Shown here: positions 3,577 to 19,347 of the stretch, in pieces
Layout: every line of letters begins with the position of its first letter
Numbering within the stretch: position 1 is the stretch's first letter
Virus record (IMG/VR): IMGVR_UViG_3300044846_004358
Direction: 5' to 3' (one strand)
DNA from: an uncultured virus (IMG/VR IMGVR_UViG_3300044846_004358)
Taxonomy: Duplodnaviria; Heunggongvirae; Uroviricota; Caudoviricetes
Length of the DNA: 20,000 nt
The notes under the pieces: generated by a model
Databases searched by the model: none
Told to the model about the DNA's origin: nothing
The model's input: only the letters and a program-made list of their open reading frames with translations
Translations under genes and position numbers: made by a program

Positions 3577-4701
3577 TTAATTAGATAATGGTAATTTTAT
3601 GATTGGGTGTGATTGGTAATTTTCTAACTTGAATGTTATACTTGGGTCTAATGTATTCAATACTTCATCCAATTCCAATAGATGCCAATTTTCATTACCT
3701 GAATTAATCTTCAATGTTGGTAATTGATATGGTTCTCTTGTTAGTTGTTCCTTAACTCCATCAATTTGATTTGAATAAATATGACAATCTCCCATATTAG
3801 CAATTAACTCATCAGGAATCATATTAACCATTTTACCCAATATCACCAACAACAATGCGTATGAAGATATATTGAATGGAGTTCCGAGTGGTACATCTTG
3901 GCTTCTGGCATTATACATTAAAGAGATTGCTCTGGTTGGGATATTTTCCCAATCAATTTTAGTATCACTTCCTTTTAGTGCTTGATGTAAGTTATTCTTC
4001 AAGTATTGCATATCTCTAATTTCATTTCTTTCATCTTCACTCAATTCTCTTGTATAAACTTGAAATCCATAATGACAAGGTGGAAGTACCATTTGGTCTA
4101 ATTCACCCACATTCCAAGCTGAAACCATTAGTCGTCTTGAGTCTGGATTTGTTTTGAGTTCGTTAATGAGGATTACTATTTGGTCAATAACTGTTTGGTC
4201 TGCATCATCATAAATGTTTTCGTATGAACCATCAGTTGATAGATACATTTTCTTTTTAGTCCATCTTCGCCATTGTCTTCCATATATTTTTCCCAATTCA
4301 CCCCACTTCTTAGCAAACTCATTATCTGTTTTGATTTTGTTAATGAATTCTTCTTTTGTTAAATTTCTACCATTAAATTTTTCACCATCAGAAACAACTT
4401 CAGATAATTTTTTTGGTAACATAATATACCGCTTATAAGCATCACCATCCCAAATATGACAATCATTATCAACAAGGTATTTGATGTTTGTATCACCCCT
4501 TAAAAACCAAATCAATTCAGTCACAATTCCCTTGAAATACATTTTCTTGGTTGTTAGTACTGGAAATCCATCTGACATTTTATGTCTTATCTGGCGACCG
4601 AATACTGATATTGTTCCTGTACCAGTTCTATCATTTTTTGTTACCCCATTTGTCATTATATCCAATAGGAGTTCTTGATAATCTTTATCTAATTTATTCA
4701 T
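3577..4701 (-). CDS. thyA: Thymidylate synthase (ThyA type) with insertions
   Basis: DRTGTGT, ELIWFLRGDTN, IWD, LGKIYGRQWR, NPDSRRLMVSAWN, catalytic LPPCH, RSQDVPLGTPFNISSY, GDCHIYSNQ. Confidence 0.97.
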   Translation of the reverse strand: MNKLDKDYQELLLDIMTNGVTKNDRTGTGTISVFGRQIRHKMSDGFPVLTTKKMYFKGIVTELIWFLRGDTNIKYLVDNDCHIWDGDAYKRYIMLPKKLSEVVSDGEKFNGRNLTKEEFINKIKTDNEFAKKWGELGKIYGRQWRRWTKKKMYLSTDGSYENIYDDADQTVIDQIVILINELKTNPDSRRLMVSAWNVGELDQMVLPPCHYGFQVYTRELSEDERNEIRDMQYLKNNLHQALKGSDTKIDWENIPTRAISLMYNARSQDVPLGTPFNISSYALLLVILGKMVNMIPDELIANMGDCHIYSNQIDGVKEQLTREPYQLPTLKINSGNENWHLLELDEVLNTLDPSITFKLENYQSHPIIKLPLSN

Positions 4702-5156: not shown

Positions 5157-5768
5157 TTATGTTAATATATCAATTTGTTTTACCACACAATCCAAAATAT
5201 ATTTTCCAACATCAGGGTCAACACAATTTCTAATTATCTGGTCTTTTCTGTGGGATAACTTAAACTCCCTCAAATCAAAATAACCTTTCTCGGAACTTCC
5301 CCTCTCATTATGGGTCAATCCATCTTTAATTTCAATTTCGGGGATATCAATGTTTGTCCAAAACAAATGTCTCCCCAACTTTATTGTTGGTTTGACAAAT
5401 GGTTCATAATATGGTTTAACATTTTCAACAACAAACTTGATGTTTGTGTTCTTGGTAAAGTTTTGTAAGAAAATGATTTCTGCCCATAACTTCATATCAG
5501 GCATTACGGAGTCATAACTTCCTCCTTTGCTTGCCATCATTCTAACTTTACTATGACTTTGACAGGGGGGACTTGACCAAATAAAATCAAAGTTTCTCCA
5601 GTTCTTGGCAAGGTATTCGTGGGCATCACCAACCACAATTGTGTCATTAGGAAAAAAATGTTGATACACATTTGCGATTTCTTCATTGTATTCCACCGCT
5701 GTCACATCAACATTTTCCCAATATTTCCTATTTCCACCTATACCAGCATATAGATTTAATACTCTCAC
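5157..5768 (-). CDS. Compact DNA cytosine-C5 methyltransferase
   Basis: Motif I LNLYAGIGG, motif IV SPPCQ (catalytic Cys), motif VI ENV, C-terminal RNCV resembling motif X; GTG start. Confidence 0.9.
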   Translation of the reverse strand: MRVLNLYAGIGGNRKYWENVDVTAVEYNEEIANVYQHFFPNDTIVVGDAHEYLAKNWRNFDFIWSSPPCQSHSKVRMMASKGGSYDSVMPDMKLWAEIIFLQNFTKNTNIKFVVENVKPYYEPFVKPTIKLGRHLFWTNIDIPEIEIKDGLTHNERGSSEKGYFDLREFKLSHRKDQIIRNCVDPDVGKYILDCVVKQIDILT

Positions 5769-7431: not shown

Positions 7432-8229
7432 TTATTCATAGTTCTTCCAAAGAGTTTCAGTTTTGGTTTTAGGTTTATGGTTACCATCAACAGTTTTTAC
7501 ATCAAAATGAACTTTAATAAATCCATTATCAGTCAATCTATCATATAATTCACAATCATATCCACTAATCAATATCTTAGCTTTGGAATCAATAACAGAA
7601 TCGAGAAACTTAATATGTCCATCTCTATCCATATCTTCCTTATATCTCGCATTTGTTCTGGTTGATTGTTCATAAGGGGGGTCAGCATAAATGAAACAAT
7701 TTGGATATTCCTTATATTTTTCAATCAACTTTATTCCATTAGTGTTTAACATAATTACTTTTGACAATCTATCGTGTAATTCAGGTAATCTATCAATTGC
7801 AGACAAAAAATCTGAAGTTGATTTACTCATCTTCCTTCTTACTATGTTGCTGATTGTAATTCCACCCACACCATTATGTGATGTTCTGTTTACATAAAAA
7901 AAGTAAAATGCTCTATCCAAAGTGGTTAAGTCACCTTTCAACTTATCTTTGAATTCCTTCCTTAAATCTTCGGAGAAATGAGTTAAATCACATTTGAACT
8001 TGAACTCATCGAATAAATCTTTATCCGACAAAACTTTATAAAGGGAATAAACATTTTGTTCTATATCATTGTAAATCTCAATTTCAGTTTCAGGTTTTTT
8101 CAATCCTATTGAGAAGGAACCACCGAATGGTTCTAAATAAATGTTAAAGTCATTTTGGTTGGGGAAGTGTTCTATAATATTGTTAAACATTGTTCCTTTT
8201 CCCCCGAAATATTTTATTGGTGTATTCAT
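7432..8229 (-). CDS. DNA adenine methyltransferase, Dam/D12 class (alpha group)
   Basis: PIKYFGGKG, YLEPFGGS, EIYND, FIYADPPY, ILISGY, TETLWKNY. Confidence 0.93.
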   Translation of the reverse strand: MNTPIKYFGGKGTMFNNIIEHFPNQNDFNIYLEPFGGSFSIGLKKPETEIEIYNDIEQNVYSLYKVLSDKDLFDEFKFKCDLTHFSEDLRKEFKDKLKGDLTTLDRAFYFFYVNRTSHNGVGGITISNIVRRKMSKSTSDFLSAIDRLPELHDRLSKVIMLNTNGIKLIEKYKEYPNCFIYADPPYEQSTRTNARYKEDMDRDGHIKFLDSVIDSKAKILISGYDCELYDRLTDNGFIKVHFDVKTVDGNHKPKTKTETLWKNYE

Positions 8230-8741: not shown

Positions 8742-10004
8742 TTAGAATCCCAATAATACATTTGCTTGTTCTGCCCAAGTCCAATTGAGTGCAGTTTTGT
8801 TAGCACCAATTGTTCTAGTTGTAACAGAAGTAGCAAAGGTACTAGTACCATTTTTGAAAACACTACTCAATGTTACATTTGTAGGAAGTATAACTTGTAA
8901 GTTTGAGAAAGTCAAAACTCCATTAGTTAAATTATCTGTTGAACAAGTAGAATTTGTTGGATTAGATATTGATAAGTCACCTCTACCCGCAGTTGCTGGG
9001 TCAACAAAATCAAAGAAGAAAATGTTTTCGAATGTTCCTCTTGGACAAGCTCTGAAGTCACCCAATTCCGCTTCAGGACTTCCTTTGATTGAACCATTTC
9101 TTAATGTGTGTGAAGCCATTAAAGTACCTTCAGGTCCATCAATTTCTAAAGCATGGTCAGTTGCACTACCACAGATTACAATAAAGTTATTTAATGTTCC
9201 AGCCCAAGCTTGGTCTGTATCAATAGCATCATCACCTGAAAACCATACAAGAAGATTAGATACATTTACAGTTCCACCAAAGAACTCAATACCATCATCT
9301 TGATTACCAACGATTTCAATATTCTCAATTGTTGTTCCATTACCAACACCACCCAAAGTTAAACCATTAATTTCATTACCATTTCCAATGTTAGCACCTC
9401 CGTGACGAATTGAAACATATTTCATAACACCAGAGTTATCACTAACATCGTTTCCACCATATAAACCATTAGGGTCAGTAGTTGGAATGCCTTCGATTTG
9501 GATTTCATTGGCTGAAGCTGAGATTGGTGCTTTTCCTAATATAATAACACCACCCCATAATCCCTGTGTTGCGGGGTCAAGGTTTGGACTAATGAAAAGT
9601 CCAGCACCTACTTGTTCAGGTGTAATTTCATCTGCAACAGATGTGAAGATAATAGGTTTAGTTGGTGTACCAACAGCATTGATTTTACCACCTCTTGCAA
9701 CTAATAAAGCTGTTGCGTTTGCTCCTGTACCTGCTTGACCTTTGATAACTGTACCTGGTTCTATTGTTAGTGTAACACCATCCAATACCGTGATTCTTCC
9801 TCCCAACTCATAAACATTGTCCGCAGTCCAAGTTGTGTTAGAACTAATGTTTGATGATATTACAACATTAGTTGTTGCTCCTTGACAAGTTCCATCAACA
9901 CAAACTTGACCATTTGGACATACTGTATCAGCACAAGAATCTTTTTGTTTACAAGATTGTAAACTTGCTAATACAACGAAAAATAAAATAAAAAGTTTTT
10001 TCAT
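8742..10004 (-). CDS. Bacteroidota-type secreted lipoprotein with beta-helix-like repeats and an N-terminal EGF-like Cys motif
   Basis: Signal peptide II with lipobox LQS-C; C-x4-C-x5-C-x4-C; then LTIEPGTVIKG, PIIFTS, WGGVIILGKAP, DNSGVMKYVSIRHGG, NEINGLTLGGVG, DDGIEFFGGTVN, DDAIDTD. Confidence 0.85.
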   Translation of the reverse strand: MKKLFILFFVVLASLQSCKQKDSCADTVCPNGQVCVDGTCQGATTNVVISSNISSNTTWTADNVYELGGRITVLDGVTLTIEPGTVIKGQAGTGANATALLVARGGKINAVGTPTKPIIFTSVADEITPEQVGAGLFISPNLDPATQGLWGGVIILGKAPISASANEIQIEGIPTTDPNGLYGGNDVSDNSGVMKYVSIRHGGANIGNGNEINGLTLGGVGNGTTIENIEIVGNQDDGIEFFGGTVNVSNLLVWFSGDDAIDTDQAWAGTLNNFIVICGSATDHALEIDGPEGTLMASHTLRNGSIKGSPEAELGDFRACPRGTFENIFFFDFVDPATAGRGDLSISNPTNSTCSTDNLTNGVLTFSNLQVILPTNVTLSSVFKNGTSTFATSVTTRTIGANKTALNWTWAEQANVLLGF

Positions 10005-10811: not shown

Positions 10812-12164
10812 CTAGTTCATTCTCATTATGACAAAAGTATATTTCTTCCCATCAGGTGTTGTTACTGTTCGTTCATCGTAATTTCCATCATAAGAAGCCA
10901 TAACACCCAAACCATCACTATCAACTATATCTCGGGCAACACCTTTCAAATTAACCCAATCATTTAATTCATAACCCATTTCCTTCAACCAATCTATTTC
11001 ATCAGTGTTTCTTATATAGTAATCGACTTTTTCGTCAATCATATCATCAGTTGGTTCTGTATCTGGTTCTATACTATCTAATTCTTCTTGAAATCCCCCA
11101 ATTTCTGTTTCCAAATCAGCTATTTCATCTTCATTTTCCGTGTTTTCTAATTTTTCTCTCAATCCTTCAATTTCAATTTCCAATCTTTCTTTTCTCTCTT
11201 CTTGTTCATCAGTTAATTGGTAATCATCATCATCAAAATAAACTTCAGGGTTGTCAGTAATGTCGTCTCTATAAAACTCCTCCATATATTCTCTAACTCG
11301 ACCTTTGTCAATATTATCTTCAATTAGTCCCCTACTAATTCCATCAATACCAATATCCTCAATCAATTGTTCTTGATTCTCAACTGCCGCTTCATACACA
11401 TCATCCCAATAACCAACAACATATTCTTGACCCCTCAAACCAATAACCTCGAAATTGTTAAGGTCACCATATGAACGATAAGATTGTGGTATAAGATAAT
11501 ATACATCAGCAACACCCTCTTGTAATTCTTCAATTTCATTTTCTAAGTCAGTAATCCTATCATATATTTCTTCCCTTTCTTCAGAGTCCATATCCAACCC
11601 TTTACCTTCTTCAATTAACCTTTCAATTTCTTCCTTCTTAGTTTTTATTTCATTCTTGGTTTCTTCATCCATCTCATCCAAATCACCCTTATAAACCAAA
11701 TAATCAAACAAAGCATTTGCCGCCAATCCTTCATCATCAATCTTTGGATTATCCAAGTCCCATTCACCATCTTGTCTCCTCTCATCAGCATCAGCCAATT
11801 TAGCCAACTCCTCTCTTCTAATTCTCATTTTTTCAATTGGTGTATTATAATCACTTACATATCCTTTAACTATAGTATTACCCAAACTACTAATTTGTGT
11901 ACTACTAATATTTAATCTTCCAGTAATAACGGCAACATTTCCCAAGTCTTTTATTGGAGTTCCACTTAAATTAACATCTCCAACGACATATAATGGTTTT
12001 CCACCAAACTTTTTAATACCAGTAACCTTTGAGTTATATGAAGCTAACTTCAATAGTTCCTCATATTGTTTACCAGTCATCTCATAATATTCACCCTCAT
12101 TTTGTTCTTTAAGGATTTTAATTAGGTTTTTTGCCTGACTTTCGGCTATAATAATTTTTTTCAT
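10812..12164 (-). CDS. Very acidic 450-aa protein with N-terminal leader, short LRR-like segment and two coiled-coil regions; candidate virion/internal protein
   Basis: Leader MKKIIIAESQAKNLIKILKE; VVGDVNLSGTPIKDLGNV/ITGRLNISSTQISSLGN repeats; two E/D-rich heptad segments. Confidence 0.8.
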   Translation of the reverse strand: MKKIIIAESQAKNLIKILKEQNEGEYYEMTGKQYEELLKLASYNSKVTGIKKFGGKPLYVVGDVNLSGTPIKDLGNVAVITGRLNISSTQISSLGNTIVKGYVSDYNTPIEKMRIRREELAKLADADERRQDGEWDLDNPKIDDEGLAANALFDYLVYKGDLDEMDEETKNEIKTKKEEIERLIEEGKGLDMDSEEREEIYDRITDLENEIEELQEGVADVYYLIPQSYRSYGDLNNFEVIGLRGQEYVVGYWDDVYEAAVENQEQLIEDIGIDGISRGLIEDNIDKGRVREYMEEFYRDDITDNPEVYFDDDDYQLTDEQEERKERLEIEIEGLREKLENTENEDEIADLETEIGGFQEELDSIEPDTEPTDDMIDEKVDYYIRNTDEIDWLKEMGYELNDWVNLKGVARDIVDSDGLGVMASYDGNYDERTVTTPDGKKYTFVIMRMN

Positions 12165-12214: not shown

Positions 12215-12255
12215 TAATGAAGTTGACTTCATAAATTAATTAAACTGATAATGAC

Positions 12256-12408
12256 ATGGGATGTGGATGCAAAAACAAACCACAAGGTCAACCAGCCCCT
12301 TCAACACCACCACCTGCTAGTAACCAAACTAGTCAGAGACAGGTGACTAACAACAACATTCAAGAATCAATCAAAAAGGTTGTTGAGAAGTACTACAACA
12401 AAAGATAA
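12256..12408 (+). CDS. Small protein with MGCGCK N-terminus (50 aa)
   Basis: Hand-translated MGCGCKNKPQGQPAPSTPPPASNQTSQRQVTNNNIQESIKKVVEKYYNKR*; preceded by the promoter-like motif and followed by a terminator. Confidence 0.8.
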   Translation: MGCGCKNKPQGQPAPSTPPPASNQTSQRQVTNNNIQESIKKVVEKYYNKR

Positions 12409-12436
12409 CTTCACTGAAGGGAAGGTACGAACTTTG

Positions 12437-12463
12437 AAGGGGACAATCAATGTCCCTTTTTTT
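12437..12463 (+). terminator. Intrinsic terminator
   Basis: aaggggaca-atcaa-tgtccc followed by a T7 tract. Confidence 0.8.
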
Positions 12464-12498
12464 ATTTTTACTATTTAAGATAATAATTTTTTTGTTTA

Positions 12499-12506
12499 TA
12501 CATTTG
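12499..12506 (+). promoter_or_regulatory. Bacteroidota -7 element upstream of the MetK-like gene
   Basis: TACATTTG (TAnnTTTG) 11 nt before ATG 12518; the -33 element is only a weak TTTA. Confidence 0.5.
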
Positions 12507-12517
12507 ATAAAAAAATT

Positions 12518-13348
12518 ATGAAGTATATTAATAGATTATCAAAAGAAGGTTTTGTAAACCTATTCGCTGACTTTATTGTCAAAAATGTAAACCCAAACTT
12601 TACCTCAAGATTTCAAGTTGTTGATTTTAAATCATTCTTGGTTGTTTATGGTGCAACAAACTCAGATGAAGTTTTAGATTTAAATAAGTTAAGAGATTTA
12701 TTTGTTGAAAAGAATCCTGATTTATTAACCTATCTTAATCTTAAACATATCAATATAATTGATTTAATAGATTATAGAGAACCGCTTTCCCCAAACGAAT
12801 ATTACTTTGAATATCATAAAAGTGATAGACCTATTTTCCACCAACAGGTAATCAATGAAGTTAATAGAGATAGTAAAAATGATTACAACAAAGAGTTCCT
12901 AAATAATATTAACTTTACAGACAAATTGGAACTAGAGTTCTATTCCCCATTCATCCCTGAGAACCTTAAAATATTCAACACAACGAACTTTCTTTCTGTT
13001 TCCTCATCATTCCCTTATGGATATAGCTTAAACCTTGGTAGAAGAGAATTATATTATGGTGAACATATTTGCAATCAATTATTTAACTTACTTGAAACTG
13101 ATAAAATTACATTTAAGTATTCTTCAGTTATTAACAATGAGGATGATTTTAACATTGAGGTAACTTGTGATTCGATTTATACACCAGAGAAAATTAAGTC
13201 ATTAATATTAGATGTATTTGATTTCAACTTAAACAAGTTTGCAAATGACTATATTAAAGATTATGATGTTGAAAGAGATATTGATAATCAACTAAATGAG
13301 AAACCTTGGTTAGTTAAAGATAGAATGAAAGATTTGGTTATATTCTAA
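12518..13348 (+). CDS. Degenerate S-adenosylmethionine synthetase (MetK/MAT)-like protein, probably catalytically inactive
   Basis: Manual alignment to E. coli MetK: [31 protein letters not shown] vs [63 protein letters not shown] vs [45 protein letters not shown] vs EQLTLLVREFFDL; KPWLVKD vs FPWEKTD. The CDS itself is certain; the fold call is inferred. Confidence 0.65.
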   Translation: [276 protein letters not shown]

Positions 13349-13351
13349 ATG

Positions 13352-13380
13352 AAAATGTCCCCTAATATTGGGGACATTTT
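13352..13380. terminator. Bidirectional intrinsic terminator between convergent genes
   Basis: aaaatgtcccc-taatatt-ggggacatttt, an 11-bp perfect inverted repeat with A/T tails on both sides. Confidence 0.85.
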
Positions 13381-13668
13381 TTATTGTAAGAACTTTTTGA
13401 TAATTTCCAATCCTTCTTCTAATTCGTTGAAATCCTCTTCAGGTGCAAATAACATTGGTATGGGTTCGTCACTCTCGGATTCATCTACCAACATAAATGC
13501 TGGAACAAAATCTTTTCCTGTTAATTCGACAAACATATCAAACTCGTCACTATATTCATCGATATCTCTATCATAGAACTCAATGCCATTTTGAACTAAT
13601 AAATCTTTGAAGTCCGTACAGTGGGGACAACCTTTCATTGTATATACTATTACTAGTTTGTTATCCAT
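13381..13668 (-). CDS. Glutaredoxin-like protein (NrdH/Grx)
   Basis: VIVYTMKGCPHC active site; TGKDFVP with the cis-Pro motif. Confidence 0.9.
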   Translation of the reverse strand: MDNKLVIVYTMKGCPHCTDFKDLLVQNGIEFYDRDIDEYSDEFDMFVELTGKDFVPAFMLVDESESDEPIPMLFAPEEDFNELEEGLEIIKKFLQ

Positions 13669-13969
13669 TGATGATGTTATTTATAACTCCTTTTAATTCT
13701 GACTCACTAAGAATACCTGATTTAGAATAAACTTCACCACCATTACTAAAAGCTTTAATGGTTGGTACTGCACGAATACCCAACTCAACAGCATATTCAC
13801 CATTATGTTCAACATTCATTGTATACATAGGTACTTCAGAACTCTCGGCAACTTTATCAAAGGTGGGTTTAAACATCTTGCACGGCATACACCAGCTGGC
13901 CCAAAAGTCAATAATAACTTGTTCACCTGATTCAATTTTTGATTTTAATTCTTCACTTGTGATTTCCAT
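13661..13969 (-). CDS. trxA: Thioredoxin
   Basis: VIIDFWASWCMPCK, GIRAVPT; start placed at MEITSEEL (13969) to avoid overlapping the endonuclease. Confidence 0.92.
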   Translation of the reverse strand: MEITSEELKSKIESGEQVIIDFWASWCMPCKMFKPTFDKVAESSEVPMYTMNVEHNGEYAVELGIRAVPTIKAFSNGGEVYSKSGILSESELKGVINNIING

Positions 13970-13980
13970 TTTTTTGTTTT

Positions 13981-14631
13981 TTAATCTTTCCATCTAGTTC
14001 CAGCTTTTATACTATATATTGTTCTAATATGAACTTCAGGATATTGTTTATTTATTTCGCTTGGCTTAACATTTTCACTTATTAATTTTTTAATACCATT
14101 AATAGTTTCAATACTGGTTTTAGATTTACTTCGTTTAATGTTTCTTATTTTTTCAATAACTTTTAACTTTTCTTCTTCATTCAAATTTTTAGACCAACCC
14201 GCTTGTTTTCTCTTATTTTTTTCTTCTTGTGCTCTATCTCCATAAATCTCTTCATAAGTTTTACCTTTATGTGATTTACCATCTTTAACCGCATTAGATA
14301 TCTTCATTCTTATTTCAGGTGAGTGTTTATAACCTAAACATCCCTCTCCTCCTACTGTAGAGTTTAATCCTTCCTCAAAACTATTGTGTTCCTTAATAAC
14401 TTCAACCTCTCTATTATATATAACATCCAATGAACATTCTTCAATCAACTCAATTGTAAACTTTTCAACACCATACTTTCTAACATTATTACATAATTTT
14501 GTATTGATGTTAGTTTTCAGACATCTGTAACAATGTTCTTCAAATCTATGTTTTAGTGTATTAATCGTACAACCAATATAAACTTTATTGTTTTCGGTGT
14601 TTGTAATTTTATATATTTTTCCGTTTTCCAT
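13981..14631 (-). CDS. Free-standing GIY-YIG homing endonuclease with NUMOD3-like segment and C-terminal HTH
   Basis: GKIYKITN...VYIGCT, RFEEH, REVEVI, GLNSTVGGEG, GYKHSPEIRMKIS (NUMOD3-like), HKGKTYEEIYG, C-terminal RTIYSIKAGTRW. Confidence 0.93.
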   Translation of the reverse strand: MENGKIYKITNTENNKVYIGCTINTLKHRFEEHCYRCLKTNINTKLCNNVRKYGVEKFTIELIEECSLDVIYNREVEVIKEHNSFEEGLNSTVGGEGCLGYKHSPEIRMKISNAVKDGKSHKGKTYEEIYGDRAQEEKNKRKQAGWSKNLNEEEKLKVIEKIRNIKRSKSKTSIETINGIKKLISENVKPSEINKQYPEVHIRTIYSIKAGTRWKD

Positions 14632-16780: not shown

Positions 16781-17530
16781 CTACACTAATGTTTCTGCCA
16801 ATGTCCAAAGTTTTGTATTCATTTGGTTGGAGGCCATAATATTTTTCAAACCTTTCAAAGATGTCTTTCTACCTGAGTTTGATTTGTAATCCACACCACC
16901 TCTGATGAACTTCTCTTGGATTACATTGAAGGTTGTCCAAAGGTCATCTTTACTATCTTCAATTCTTTGTGGTGTAATAAGTTGTTCAAGGTTTAATGTT
17001 GATGGGACTGAACCCATTCCCCACTTGATGATTGATGCGTTTTTAGCAAACTCAATCTTTTCACCTTCAGTCAACATTCTATCCATCATCTTATCAACTG
17101 AGTTTTGGATTAGAGGAAGTTTCTTTGCAAAGCTCTCAGTCAATCTTTTTACTTCGTCAGAGTCAAAACCCATATGTCTTACAGTGAATTGTTCAGCGGT
17201 TGAAGTTGGAACTGTAAGTCCGTTACTACAACATAATCTAAATAAACCAGCGCCAACTGTAAGAGCTGTAGTTCCGTTGTGAGAGTTTCTAACGATGGCC
17301 TCAACTAATGTGTCACCAACAGCAGGTAATTCACCATTACGGAATCTTAGTTCGTGTACACCATATGCACCTTTACCATTTTGTTTTACAGATGCAAGTT
17401 GCCATCCTTCGTTGGTGAAGTTTTCCATCAATTCGATTGTTGGAACGAATGAATACTTGTTTGACATTTTGGGGTCAGCAGAAGTAGAGAAGATTGCAGG
17501 AGCGATTGTTTTGATGTCTTGGATTGTCAT
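16781..17530 (-). CDS. DUF932/DUF945 family protein
   Basis: APAIFS...SNKYSFVPT, HELRFR, NSHNG, GLFRLCCSNGL, DLWTTFNVIQEKFIRGG, NTKLWTLAE. Confidence 0.9.
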   Translation of the reverse strand: MTIQDIKTIAPAIFSTSADPKMSNKYSFVPTIELMENFTNEGWQLASVKQNGKGAYGVHELRFRNGELPAVGDTLVEAIVRNSHNGTTALTVGAGLFRLCCSNGLTVPTSTAEQFTVRHMGFDSDEVKRLTESFAKKLPLIQNSVDKMMDRMLTEGEKIEFAKNASIIKWGMGSVPSTLNLEQLITPQRIEDSKDDLWTTFNVIQEKFIRGGVDYKSNSGRKTSLKGLKNIMASNQMNTKLWTLAETLV

Positions 17531-17896: not shown

Positions 17897-19270
17897 TTAC
17901 ATTACATAATAGAAACCATCACCTTGGTCCATCATTTTCTCTTTCAATGTTTCAGGTATTTTGATACTTGGATTCGAACCTTTTAAGTTAACAAAAGATA
18001 AGTTTTCCAAACCTGTAATGGACTCAGGTAAAGATACTAATTGTTTGTTATCAGGTAAAGAAAGAAAACTTAATTGTTGTAAGTTTCCAATACTATCAGG
18101 TAATGATTTACATATGTTTTGTAAAACCAAAGCATCCAAACTTTTGAATCTACCCAAAGATTCAGGCACATCCAAACCTATTGGTGTTTGAGATGTATTG
18201 TTAATCATCAAATGTTCAATATCATCTGGTAAATTGTCGAATAATTCTTCGAAACCATATAATGCAACATATTTTCCTGCTGAACTATTTGGATAAGAAA
18301 TTTCAACTTTCTTTCCACCCTTTGTGGTCAAACCTTTTGCAAACTCCCCTTTGAAGAAATCTTTCAACTCAGGTGCCTTCTCATTCAAAAACTTTACTAA
18401 ATCAATCTGTCTATCGTGTCTGTCCATAAATTGACTTGAAGGGAAATGGAACTGATATCTTTCTTCAGGTAATCCTGTTCTTTTACCAACTTGACCATTG
18501 TCATTCTGTGGGAATACAACATAAAGAGGTCCATTCTTAATATAATTTTCGAACCAAGTCAAACCAGGTGCTGATGTACACCAGTCAGATTCACCCTCTC
18601 TATAATCCTTATAACCACCATAATAGATTGCTGCGTCTTTACTAGTTGGGTTGTTACCCTCAACTTTAATCAATACCCAATCACTTCCTTCAAAAATGAT
18701 TTGACCACCAGCATGTTTCAATCCTTCTCTAGTCTTCTTAGCTTGTTTTTTCTCAATCTCTTTTTGTTTCTTCTCAGGTAACTTGAAGTTAGCAAATATA
18801 TCTTTCAATTGAGCTGGTGTCAATTTATTGATGTCCCTTTGGTTTTCAGGTAGATATTGTTTTACCTTTTCGAAAAATTGAAGTTGTTCAGTCATTTTGA
18901 ACAAATCTTCCAAATATAATTCTCTATAACTTTTGATAGCGTTTTTAAACTCTTTAGATTGGGGGTCTAACGCTTTCATTTCTTCAGTCATAGCAGGTAC
19001 TGCAAAGTTTTTCAACATCCATTGTGTAAACTTACCCACTTTAACTTTATCCATATCATCAATCGATGCCCCATCTATATCAAAGTTTTCAGGTGCTTTG
19101 GTGTCAGGGTCAGCAAATATGATTCTTTTTAATATGTCAAAGGTCATCAAACCTTTAGCTTTTGGATTTTTTTCTAATGCTTTTTGTGATGGGGTAACCA
19201 TCTTATCATAAAGAACTTTGAATCTTGAGTTTTCAACAATTAATTTCTTAAGTACGGAAGTAAATCTCAT
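17897..19270 (-). CDS. Leucine-rich-repeat protein with central WCT/GPLY/YQFHF domain
   Basis: C-terminal LRRs (VPESLGRFKSLDALVL, LPDSIGNLQQLSFLSL, LPESITGLENLSFVNL); central SDWCTS...GPLYVV...RYQFHF...QFMD. ATG at 19270 (MRFTSVLKKLIVE) preferred over TTG at 19324. Confidence 0.88.
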   Translation of the reverse strand: MRFTSVLKKLIVENSRFKVLYDKMVTPSQKALEKNPKAKGLMTFDILKRIIFADPDTKAPENFDIDGASIDDMDKVKVGKFTQWMLKNFAVPAMTEEMKALDPQSKEFKNAIKSYRELYLEDLFKMTEQLQFFEKVKQYLPENQRDINKLTPAQLKDIFANFKLPEKKQKEIEKKQAKKTREGLKHAGGQIIFEGSDWVLIKVEGNNPTSKDAAIYYGGYKDYREGESDWCTSAPGLTWFENYIKNGPLYVVFPQNDNGQVGKRTGLPEERYQFHFPSSQFMDRHDRQIDLVKFLNEKAPELKDFFKGEFAKGLTTKGGKKVEISYPNSSAGKYVALYGFEELFDNLPDDIEHLMINNTSQTPIGLDVPESLGRFKSLDALVLQNICKSLPDSIGNLQQLSFLSLPDNKQLVSLPESITGLENLSFVNLKGSNPSIKIPETLKEKMMDQGDGFYYVM

Positions 19271-19287
19271 TTTTTTGGTTTTTCTTA

Positions 19288-19296
19288 ATAAATATC
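19288..19296 (-). promoter_or_regulatory. GATATTTAT motif (putative phage promoter)
   Basis: 17 nt upstream of ATG 19270, the same spacing as at the endonuclease gene. Confidence 0.55.
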
Positions 19297-19317
19297 TTTG
19301 ATGTGATAAAAATAGTA

Positions 19318-19347
19318 GTCCCAATAACTATTATTGATTATTGGGAC
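19318..19347. repeat. 10-bp perfect inverted repeat in a divergent intergenic region
   Basis: gtcccaataa-ctattattga-ttattgggac. Confidence 0.85.

Follow-up and report, generated by a model that had tools for sequence, protein, structure and literature searches.

A phage gene family with a predicted two-domain, non-catalytic form of the S-adenosylmethionine synthetase fold

Here we describe a gene of an uncultured Caudoviricetes virus (IMG/VR record IMGVR_UViG_3300044846_004358), located at positions 12,518 to 13,348 of a 20,000-nucleotide stretch of that record, hereafter the window. The gene encodes a 276-aa protein, P0001. Its predicted structure shows a folded protein, maintained by selection, with the fold of S-adenosylmethionine (SAM) synthetase (MetK; methionine adenosyltransferase, MAT), reduced to the N- and C-terminal domains. 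We class P0001 and its relatives as a two-domain, non-catalytic branch of the MAT fold, and we tentatively read the protein as a binding pseudoenzyme. An initial annotation of the window, which relied on a manual alignment with Escherichia coli MetK, had proposed a SAM synthetase scaffold with an erased active site that might assemble with the MetK of the host.

The fold assignment rests on structure prediction and comparison. An AlphaFold2 model of P0001, built from a 73-sequence alignment, had a predicted local distance difference test score (pLDDT) of 94.7 and a predicted template modeling score (pTM) of 0.91. When the model was searched against the PDB with Foldseek, the best 50 matches were all SAM synthetases; the top match was 7r3b_G (E 5.4e-11) and 153 matches were found at E ≤ 0.001. 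VIA-align placed residues 2-276 of the model on residues 13-403 of 8jzi_B with a Z of 16.7, a root-mean-square deviation (rmsd) of 4.8, and 268 of the 276 residues aligned, and a Z of 16.5 was obtained with the E. coli MetK from the T3 SAM-lyase complex (8bb1). A Foldseek-independent scan of 48,161 representative PDB chains returned three chains at Z ≥ 8, all of them MATs (bacterial-type, 16.2 and 16.0; archaeal, 10.4), and the next chain scored 5.5, so that the match to MATs stands well above unrelated folds. A library of viral predicted structures contained a sole match, a 208-aa uncharacterized Caudovirales protein (E 2.6e-12). The fold is also predicted for the short members of the family: the model of a 231-aa protein (pLDDT 93.2) matches a MAT end to end (5h9u, Z 16.6, 227 aligned residues, rmsd 3.9). 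Identity between P0001 and MetKs in the structure alignments is 9-13%. The MAT fold put forward in the initial annotation is thus upheld by Foldseek and structure comparison alike (E 5e-11 and Z 16-17).

At the level of sequence, the link to MetK is faint and confined to the two outer domains. Profile-profile comparison with hhalign aligned residues 2-85 of P0001 with residues 9-97 of E. coli MetK (local mode, N-terminal slices, E 0.0037) and, in a comparison against seven MetKs, residues 172-269 with MetK 270-373 (E 2.5e-4). The family profile (alignment A1) had a single PDB sequence match at E ≤ 10, to residues 282-348 in the C domain of MetK 5t8s (E 2.7). Individually, 10 of 73 family members matched PF02773, weakly and with a best E of 4.3e-5, and PF00438 and PF02772 are not among the best 25 of the 43 Pfam families matched by the 73 members. 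P0001 itself matched no Pfam family at E ≤ 10, which places it outside the SAM synthetase family as Pfam models define it, and it had no match in PHROG, NCBIfam, PADLOC, or PDB sequences. No Pfam, PHROG, or NCBIfam model covers the family.

The short form, which lacks the middle domain, still matches MATs, and the family core therefore corresponds to the N and C domains of MetK. In P0001, approximately residues 102-257 of MetK are replaced by ∼58 residues (101-158), and at the same site the 231-aa members have a loop (residues ∼99-120) with a pLDDT of 60-79. Three full pseudo-symmetric domains are accordingly not present. The best-conserved motif of the family, S163-x-F165-P166-x-G168-[YFH]-S170...G174-R175, lies at the site of the MetK phosphate loop; P166 is conserved in 100% of members, G168 in 99%, S163 in 97%, F165 in 90%, and S170 in 84%. 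Further conserved residues are S8, N14, G45, F62, D82, Y86, S228, and D232.

The equivalents of the MetK active-site residues were then read from these alignments, in E. coli MetK numbering counting Met1. LSKEG of P0001 falls over the MetK motif GHPDK, with S8 over H15, E10 over D17, and G11 over K18. Q33 falls over E43, A46 over E56, N172 over K270, and G174 over D272, with Gly at the last position in 50 of 73 members. G168, placed by ungapped backward extension of the C-domain block, falls over K266 and is Gly in 72 of 73. The residues at E10, Q33, A46, and N172 vary within the family, as do those at the equivalent of MetK Q99. Three residues are the same in both proteins: G45 (MetK G55), R175 (R273), and Y179 (Y277). 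Five motifs (GHPDK, GAGDQG, GxTGRK, GGGAFSGKD, and KDxxKVD) were taken from the E. coli MetK sequence and alignment A2, and none of 300 family proteins carries any of them, which sets the family apart from EC 2.5.1.6. In MetK, the residues of these motifs serve catalysis and the binding of ATP, Mg, K, and methionine. With none of them left, P0001 should be unable to make SAM, and the sequence speaks strongly against such an activity. These results reproduce most of what the initial annotation had drawn from its manual alignment, namely the correspondence of both outer domains, GHPDK over LSKEG, a MetK Glu over Gln, and an erased active site in which GAGDQG and GxTGRK are missing. The proposed replacement of the ∼170-aa middle holds as well, although the substitute is shorter than the ∼75 aa that had been given.

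P0001 belongs to a large family. At E ≤ 0.01, 472 metagenomic proteins match P0001, and when 1.84 billion cluster representatives were scanned exhaustively with HMMER, 191 clusters (50% identity) were obtained at E ≤ 0.001. Among the 150 clusters listed of these 191, all proteins are of 277 aa or fewer and none has the length of MetK. The reading frame is intact and the length constant across the 191 clusters, down to 26-30% identity, and the ratio of nonsynonymous to synonymous substitution rates (dN/dS) between P0001 and five relatives is 0.041-0.128. The gene is confirmed as real and under strong purifying selection. A search of 7,999 candidates with lengths of 486-2000 aa found no fused or longer forms; this negative is weak evidence. 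Neither tblastn nor blastn found a relative of P0001 in the GenBank phage record collection, and two pattern-limited scans (P0059; alignment A5) of 185,579 prokaryote species genomes returned none. Among the collections searched, the family was located solely in viral and metagenomic DNA. The viral contigs with relatives reach 322 kb, and five genomes of 308-322 kb, rated 100% complete, carry exactly one copy each; the carrier is a giant phage of aquatic bacteria. A full-text literature search, whose coverage excludes subscription journals, found no paper describing such a protein.

The gene is predicted to form a transcription unit of its own, with its own promoter-like boxes and terminators. 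Its ORF, which includes a stop codon and has no internal stop, is the sole sizable + strand ORF of the window outside any longer - strand ORF; two further + ORFs exceed 100 aa (8785-9303 and 16905-17282) and overlap bigger - strand ORFs. A terminator scan of the window found two hairpins followed by T-runs, at 12436-12460 and 13360-13373, against 0.7 expected. The second, when read by eye, has an A-run before it and a T-run after it and could terminate in both directions. In most of the closer relatives, a GGGAC/GTCCC hairpin with a T-run lies upstream of the gene, and equivalent hairpins follow its stop codon. A TATAAT box is found in sister clades at about the place where the window has a TAnnTTTG element. 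Contigs from three runs labeled metatranscriptomic (X2, X4, and X6, 90-99% alike) span positions 12234-12820, and two of them bridge the upstream terminator; contigs from RNA libraries are no proof of transcription. None of this kind covered 12872-13800, an absence that carries no weight. Thus the bracketing terminators and the separate unit of the initial annotation are both found, and the arrangement is kept in relatives. Its statement that this is the only large + strand gene is true apart from the overlapping ORFs named above. The TAnnTTTG element is indeed present 11 nt before the ATG, but the AT-rich window has no excess of the pattern (38 matches versus 33.8 expected), and for this reason the element is no promoter evidence alone; it was dropped as a host-type promoter signal. 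In a separate observation, a TTTA[CT]TATAAT-like box recurs ∼35 nt upstream of the start codon in distant clades (L063-L092), even where another gene lies directly upstream. This box may be a phage-specific promoter.

The surroundings of the gene were compared across the window and 99 related loci, many of which are near-identical contigs (43 distinct upstream sequences). In all 23 gene maps examined, the MetK-like gene lies on the strand opposite to the surrounding genes. On one flank are two unknowns, F1 (∼450 aa, in 98 of 100 sources) and F2 (in 91 of 100), and on the other are a glutaredoxin (89 of 100) and a thioredoxin (86 of 100). In some relatives, the block bordered by the MetK-like gene holds collagen-like tail-fiber genes. 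Presence and absence were scored at 82 loci anchored on the neighbor gene F5, 77 of which extend at least 4.5 kb on the relevant side. The MetK-like gene is present in 69 of the 77, always on the strand opposite to F5. Four loci (L134, L135, L136, and L158) keep the glutaredoxin, a 174-aa ORF, a small ORF of 50 aa, F1, and F2 and are without the MetK-like gene; they show no remnant by tblastn at E ≤ 10 and no copy elsewhere in their records, which are 13-43% complete. Three others (L137, L144, and L187) come from contigs with the gene further away, and L186 ends at a contig end. The four syntenic loci without the gene indicate that it is accessory and dispensable there rather than core.

Table 1. 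Features of the MetK-like gene and its immediate surroundings (positions in the window).
Feature	Position	Strand	Basis
Conserved 50-aa small ORF, first gene of the + strand island; MGCGCK N-terminus, Q/P/T-rich low-complexity middle, ...IQESIKKVVEKYYNKR	12256..12408	+	ORF list and tblastn
Intrinsic-terminator-like hairpin (GAAGGGGAC...GTCCCTTTT) with T-run, between the small ORF and the MetK-like gene	12436..12470	+	Terminator scan
TACATTTG (TAnnTTTG) element, possible -7/-10-like promoter box	12499..12506	+	Pattern search; 11 nt before the MetK-like ATG
MetK-like CDS, 276-aa predicted non-catalytic MetK/MAT-fold protein P0001	12518..13348	+	ORF list; AlphaFold2 pLDDT 94.7, pTM 0.91; MAT matches; dN/dS 0.04-0.13
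Residues 1-100, counterpart of the first ∼100 MetK residues (Pfam S-AdoMet_synt_N segment)	12518..12817	+	hhalign E 0.0037; mean top-residue frequency 0.46
Residues 101-158, vestigial middle domain (helix 109-116 and three strands)	12818..12991	+	Model secondary structure; conservation 0.22, 30% gaps
Residues 159-276, counterpart of the MetK C-terminal domain	12992..13345	+	5t8s match; PF02773 in 10/73; hhalign E 2.5e-4; mean top-residue frequency 0.44
Residues S163-R175, rebuilt loop where MetK has the GGGAFSGKDPSKVDR phosphate loop	13004..13042	+	Conservation table; residue mapping
A-run, GTCCCC/GGGGAC hairpin, T-run; terminator common to the MetK-like gene and the convergent glutaredoxin gene (13381-13668, -)	13352..13382	.	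Sequence read by eye; scan core 13360-13373

Several genes recur near the MetK-like gene. The 50-aa small ORF, which ends in an IQESI[KR]KVVEKYY helix, was found by tblastn in 81 of the 99 related loci, where it invariably precedes the MetK-like gene on the same strand; it had no family match in NCBIfam or PADLOC. As an obligate partner of the MetK-like protein it was discarded, since it persists in contigs without the MetK-like gene. In some clades, the + strand island also contains a GIY-YIG homing endonuclease and the unknowns F14 (∼338 aa, 32 loci) and F27 (280 aa, 10 loci). In more distant clades, one or both of the latter immediately precede the MetK-like gene and share its strand (e.g., L076:3984-5000 + and L081:5007-5849 +). 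Neither had a Pfam match or a useful PDB match, and PHROG gave only a weak match of F27 to phrog_16532 (E 2e-4). Kinship of F14 or F27 with the MetK-like family or with MetK was considered and rejected, as hhalign finds them unrelated. The GIY-YIG endonuclease gene is at 13981-14631 (-) in the window and just upstream of the MetK-like gene (+) in L012, L013, L017, L021, L059, L076, and L097; its varying position and strand around the island suggests a mobile endonuclease hot-spot beside the MetK-like gene. Two F1 paralogs of ∼450-475 aa flank the region, at 10812-12164 (-) and 17897-19324 (-), the second with a weak leucine-rich-repeat-like C-terminus.

The window comes from a 98-kb record with an estimated completeness of 33%. 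The three methyltransferases mentioned in the initial annotation were found, all of them DNA methyltransferases (PF01555 at 3-821, PF00145 at 5157-5768, and PF02086 at 7432-8229), and with a second C5 methyltransferase elsewhere the record holds at least four such genes. It also encodes DnaK, DnaJ, SmpB, a histidine kinase, a protein with a type-IX-secretion sorting domain and a CHU_C Ig domain, and a SusC-like TonB receptor with a CarboxypepD_reg domain. The secretion-sorting and SusC-like proteins are typical of Bacteroidota, in agreement with the host guessed initially. No tRNA genes were found in the record. A check that the initial annotation had called for, whether the phage also encodes an intact metK, came out negative: the 98-kb record has none, and in five complete related genomes none is above the Pfam cut-off, the sole sub-threshold match being the MetK-like family member itself. 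A phage SAM lyase was considered as a partner; a search for the family PF23780 gave no match in the record or the five complete genomes, but it had no working positive control and says little.

Other genes of these phages were noted in passing. The C5 methyltransferase ORF of the window (5157-5768, -, 203 aa) aligns with no more than positions 1-112 of a Pfam model of 324 positions, and the related locus L013 has two adjacent ORFs (206 and 353 aa) of the same family; on both counts, the gene in the window may be split or truncated. A thymidylate-synthase homolog (3577-4701, -, 374 aa) covers the full length of the Pfam model (266 positions) and has ∼100 extra residues. Host-like genes outside the window (L108:10575-12272, L108:15438-18263, L111:5749-7677, L108:6152-6577, and L111:1225-3345; type IX secretion protein, SusC-like receptor, DnaK, SmpB, and PAS/GAF histidine kinase with response regulator) hint at a Bacteroidota host and extensive capture of host functions.

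We tentatively favor the reading that P0001 is a binding pseudoenzyme that acts through the rebuilt face of the former active site, probably as a self-pairing MetK-like dimer whose cleft holds a ligand or a client. P0001 would then work by binding rather than by SAM synthesis. Its working face would be the counterpart of the MetK face that is buried between two subunits on the active-site side, and this face would carry the SxFPxG[YFH]S...GR motif in place of the phosphate loop. In MetK, dimer formation buries the flat, hydrophobic face of the sheet, where the active site lies. Any protein that retains the fold must cover this face with a partner, which makes self-pairing with a second copy the default. 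A small ligand or a client would sit in the rebuilt cleft between subunits, where the lysine, the Mg-binding aspartate, and the catalytic histidine are missing, and the phage may thereby gain a sponge, sensor, or adaptor that acts on the host or against it. That the best-conserved element of the family is the former phosphate loop argues that the former active site still matters and has not decayed.

Several points weigh against this reading. The clustering of conserved residues on one face is a prediction from the alignment with MetK. N14 (over D21), D18 (over D25), R175 (over R273), and Y179 (over Y277) are conserved here and invariant in MetK too, and these polar residues may only hold the scaffold together. 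Contacts to adenine, ribose, and phosphate are supplied by the middle domain in MetK; with that domain gone in the short members, a closed small-molecule pocket may not exist across the family. No result of the analysis indicated a ligand, and neither fused forms (among the 7,999 candidates) nor informative neighbors (in the related loci compared) came to light. A more specific version, in which a two-domain, non-catalytic MAT-fold dimer of giant Bacteroidota phages captures a SAM-related molecule in its cleft (SAM, methionine, or SAM-AMP), is a long shot that we place below every alternative considered next except simple decay. According to a preprint, SAM-AMP serves type III CRISPR-CorA systems of Bacteroides as an immune signal (Chi et al., bioRxiv 10.1101/2025.04.28.651013). 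If true, such capture would represent a new class of anti-defense sponge and the first non-synthetase function of the MAT fold.

The most serious alternative, although in our estimate unlikely, is the one proposed initially, that a dead paralog joins host MetK assemblies as a poisoning or regulating subunit, or caps the MetK dimer, and so retunes or lowers SAM for anti-restriction or anti-BREX purposes or for the phage methyltransferases. The MetK fold of P0001 is consistent with this, as are an accessory gene with promoter-like boxes and terminators of its own and carriers in which an intact MetK is missing (0 of 5 complete genomes at the Pfam cut-off) and several SAM-using DNA methyltransferases are encoded. 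A precedent is outlined in a preprint on T3 SAMase, which binds and inhibits MetK and defeats BREX (bioRxiv 10.1101/2023.02.27.530186). P0001, however, is only 9-13% identical to MetKs, and the interface and active-site residues that are invariant in MetKs are all replaced in the retained N and C segments. The active-site residues of MetK sit on the subunit interface, and a mimic of a slowly evolving partner face should keep its residues; their replacement therefore speaks against co-assembly. In addition, one of the three domains from which the MetK face is built is missing from the short members, and because MetK dimers are tight, a poisonous subunit would mostly affect MetK that has just been synthesized. 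With at least four DNA methyltransferase genes, the phage also has little obvious interest in SAM starvation. Complex prediction of P0001 (alignment A1) with Flavobacterium johnsoniae MetK (METK_FLAJ1) gave an ipSAE interface score of 0.00 in both runs, which included no control pairs, and counts neither for nor against binding. Apart from it, the findings lean mildly against canonical co-assembly with host MetK.

Less likely again is an adaptor or decoy that would offer a MetK-like surface to a host or defense factor recognizing MetK, or would bind a protein of the phage itself, for instance a methyltransferase. This would fit a host-enzyme fold without catalysis, accessory status, predicted separate expression, and a conservation peak on the former interface loop, but the context suggests no partner: the neighbors are unknowns, tail-fiber-like genes, and glutaredoxin and thioredoxin, the co-located small ORF persists without the MetK-like gene, and no fusions were found. 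A structural, assembly, or other SAM-unrelated role, such as a virion or assembly factor that reuses the fold, could be read from the border position next to collagen-like tail-fiber genes in some relatives and from the acidity of the family (median isoelectric point 4.9), a trait of many structural and scaffold proteins that E. coli MetK shares. We rate this as improbable, because the gene always lies on the strand opposite to the neighboring blocks with terminators of its own and because its absence from the syntenic site in four related contigs would be unusual for a structural core gene. Lower still we rank a new enzyme, in which the rebuilt cleft would catalyze a reaction other than SAM synthesis. 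Several of the conserved residues S8, N14, D82, Y86, S163, S170, R175, S228, and D232 align with MetK active-site positions; against this, all known MAT catalytic residues are lost, the middle domain that holds the nucleotide in MetK is lost as well, some of the conserved polar residues are common to MetK and probably structural, and no pathway gene co-occurs. Finally, the loss of all catalytic motifs and most of one domain is what might be seen in a phage metK that has lost its function and is decaying. A dN/dS of 0.04-0.13, an intact frame of constant length over 191 clusters down to 26-30% identity, and a very confident fold effectively refute this reading, to which we give almost no weight.

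Comparison with known proteins helps to place the family. Bacterial and eukaryotic MetK/MAT proteins (PF00438, PF02772, and PF02773; PDB 8jzi, 8bb1 chain A, 4le5, and 5h9u) share the fold end to end, and P0001 retains a weak but specific sequence signal to them in its C and N domains; they differ in length (∼384 aa versus 276 aa), in the middle domain, which is vestigial or absent here, and in the five missing motifs. The archaeal-type MAT of Methanocaldococcus jannaschii (7p82) belongs to the same fold class (Z 10.4 with the long form and 9.4 with the short form) but is a more distant match than the bacterial type, and it is a full three-domain catalyst. MAT folds are also phage-borne in the intact MetKs of Erysipelothrix phage phi1605, Streptococcus prophages, and Microcystis phage Mel-JY01, and tblastn with E. 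coli MetK matched 138 records of the phage collection, 122 with at least 80% query coverage. These MetKs are full length, share 41-63% identity with E. coli MetK, and have the invariant catalytic columns intact, none of which is true of P0001. The prozymes of trypanosomatid AdoMet decarboxylase and deoxyhypusine synthase are dead paralogs that pair with the active enzyme and activate it. The concept of a dead paralog is the same, but prozymes are cellular and moderately similar to their active partners, unlike P0001 with its 9-13% identity to MetK. The SAM lyase of phage T3 (gp0.3), as the preprint portrays it, offers a possible functional analogy only, that of a phage protein acting on host SAM supply; its fold is unrelated to that of P0001 and it is an active enzyme.

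To our knowledge, the MAT fold has been treated as a fold with one function. The family described here, with at least 191 clusters, keeps this fold under strong selection yet is without the catalytic motifs and most or all of one domain. Natural variants without the gene, together with the short and long forms, are ready comparisons. A preprint portrays SAM supply as a battleground between phages and Type I restriction-modification or BREX (Andriianov et al., bioRxiv 10.1101/2023.02.27.530186). Since SAM supply is contested, a phage protein derived from the enzyme that makes SAM is a candidate for a new way to act on host metabolism or defense.

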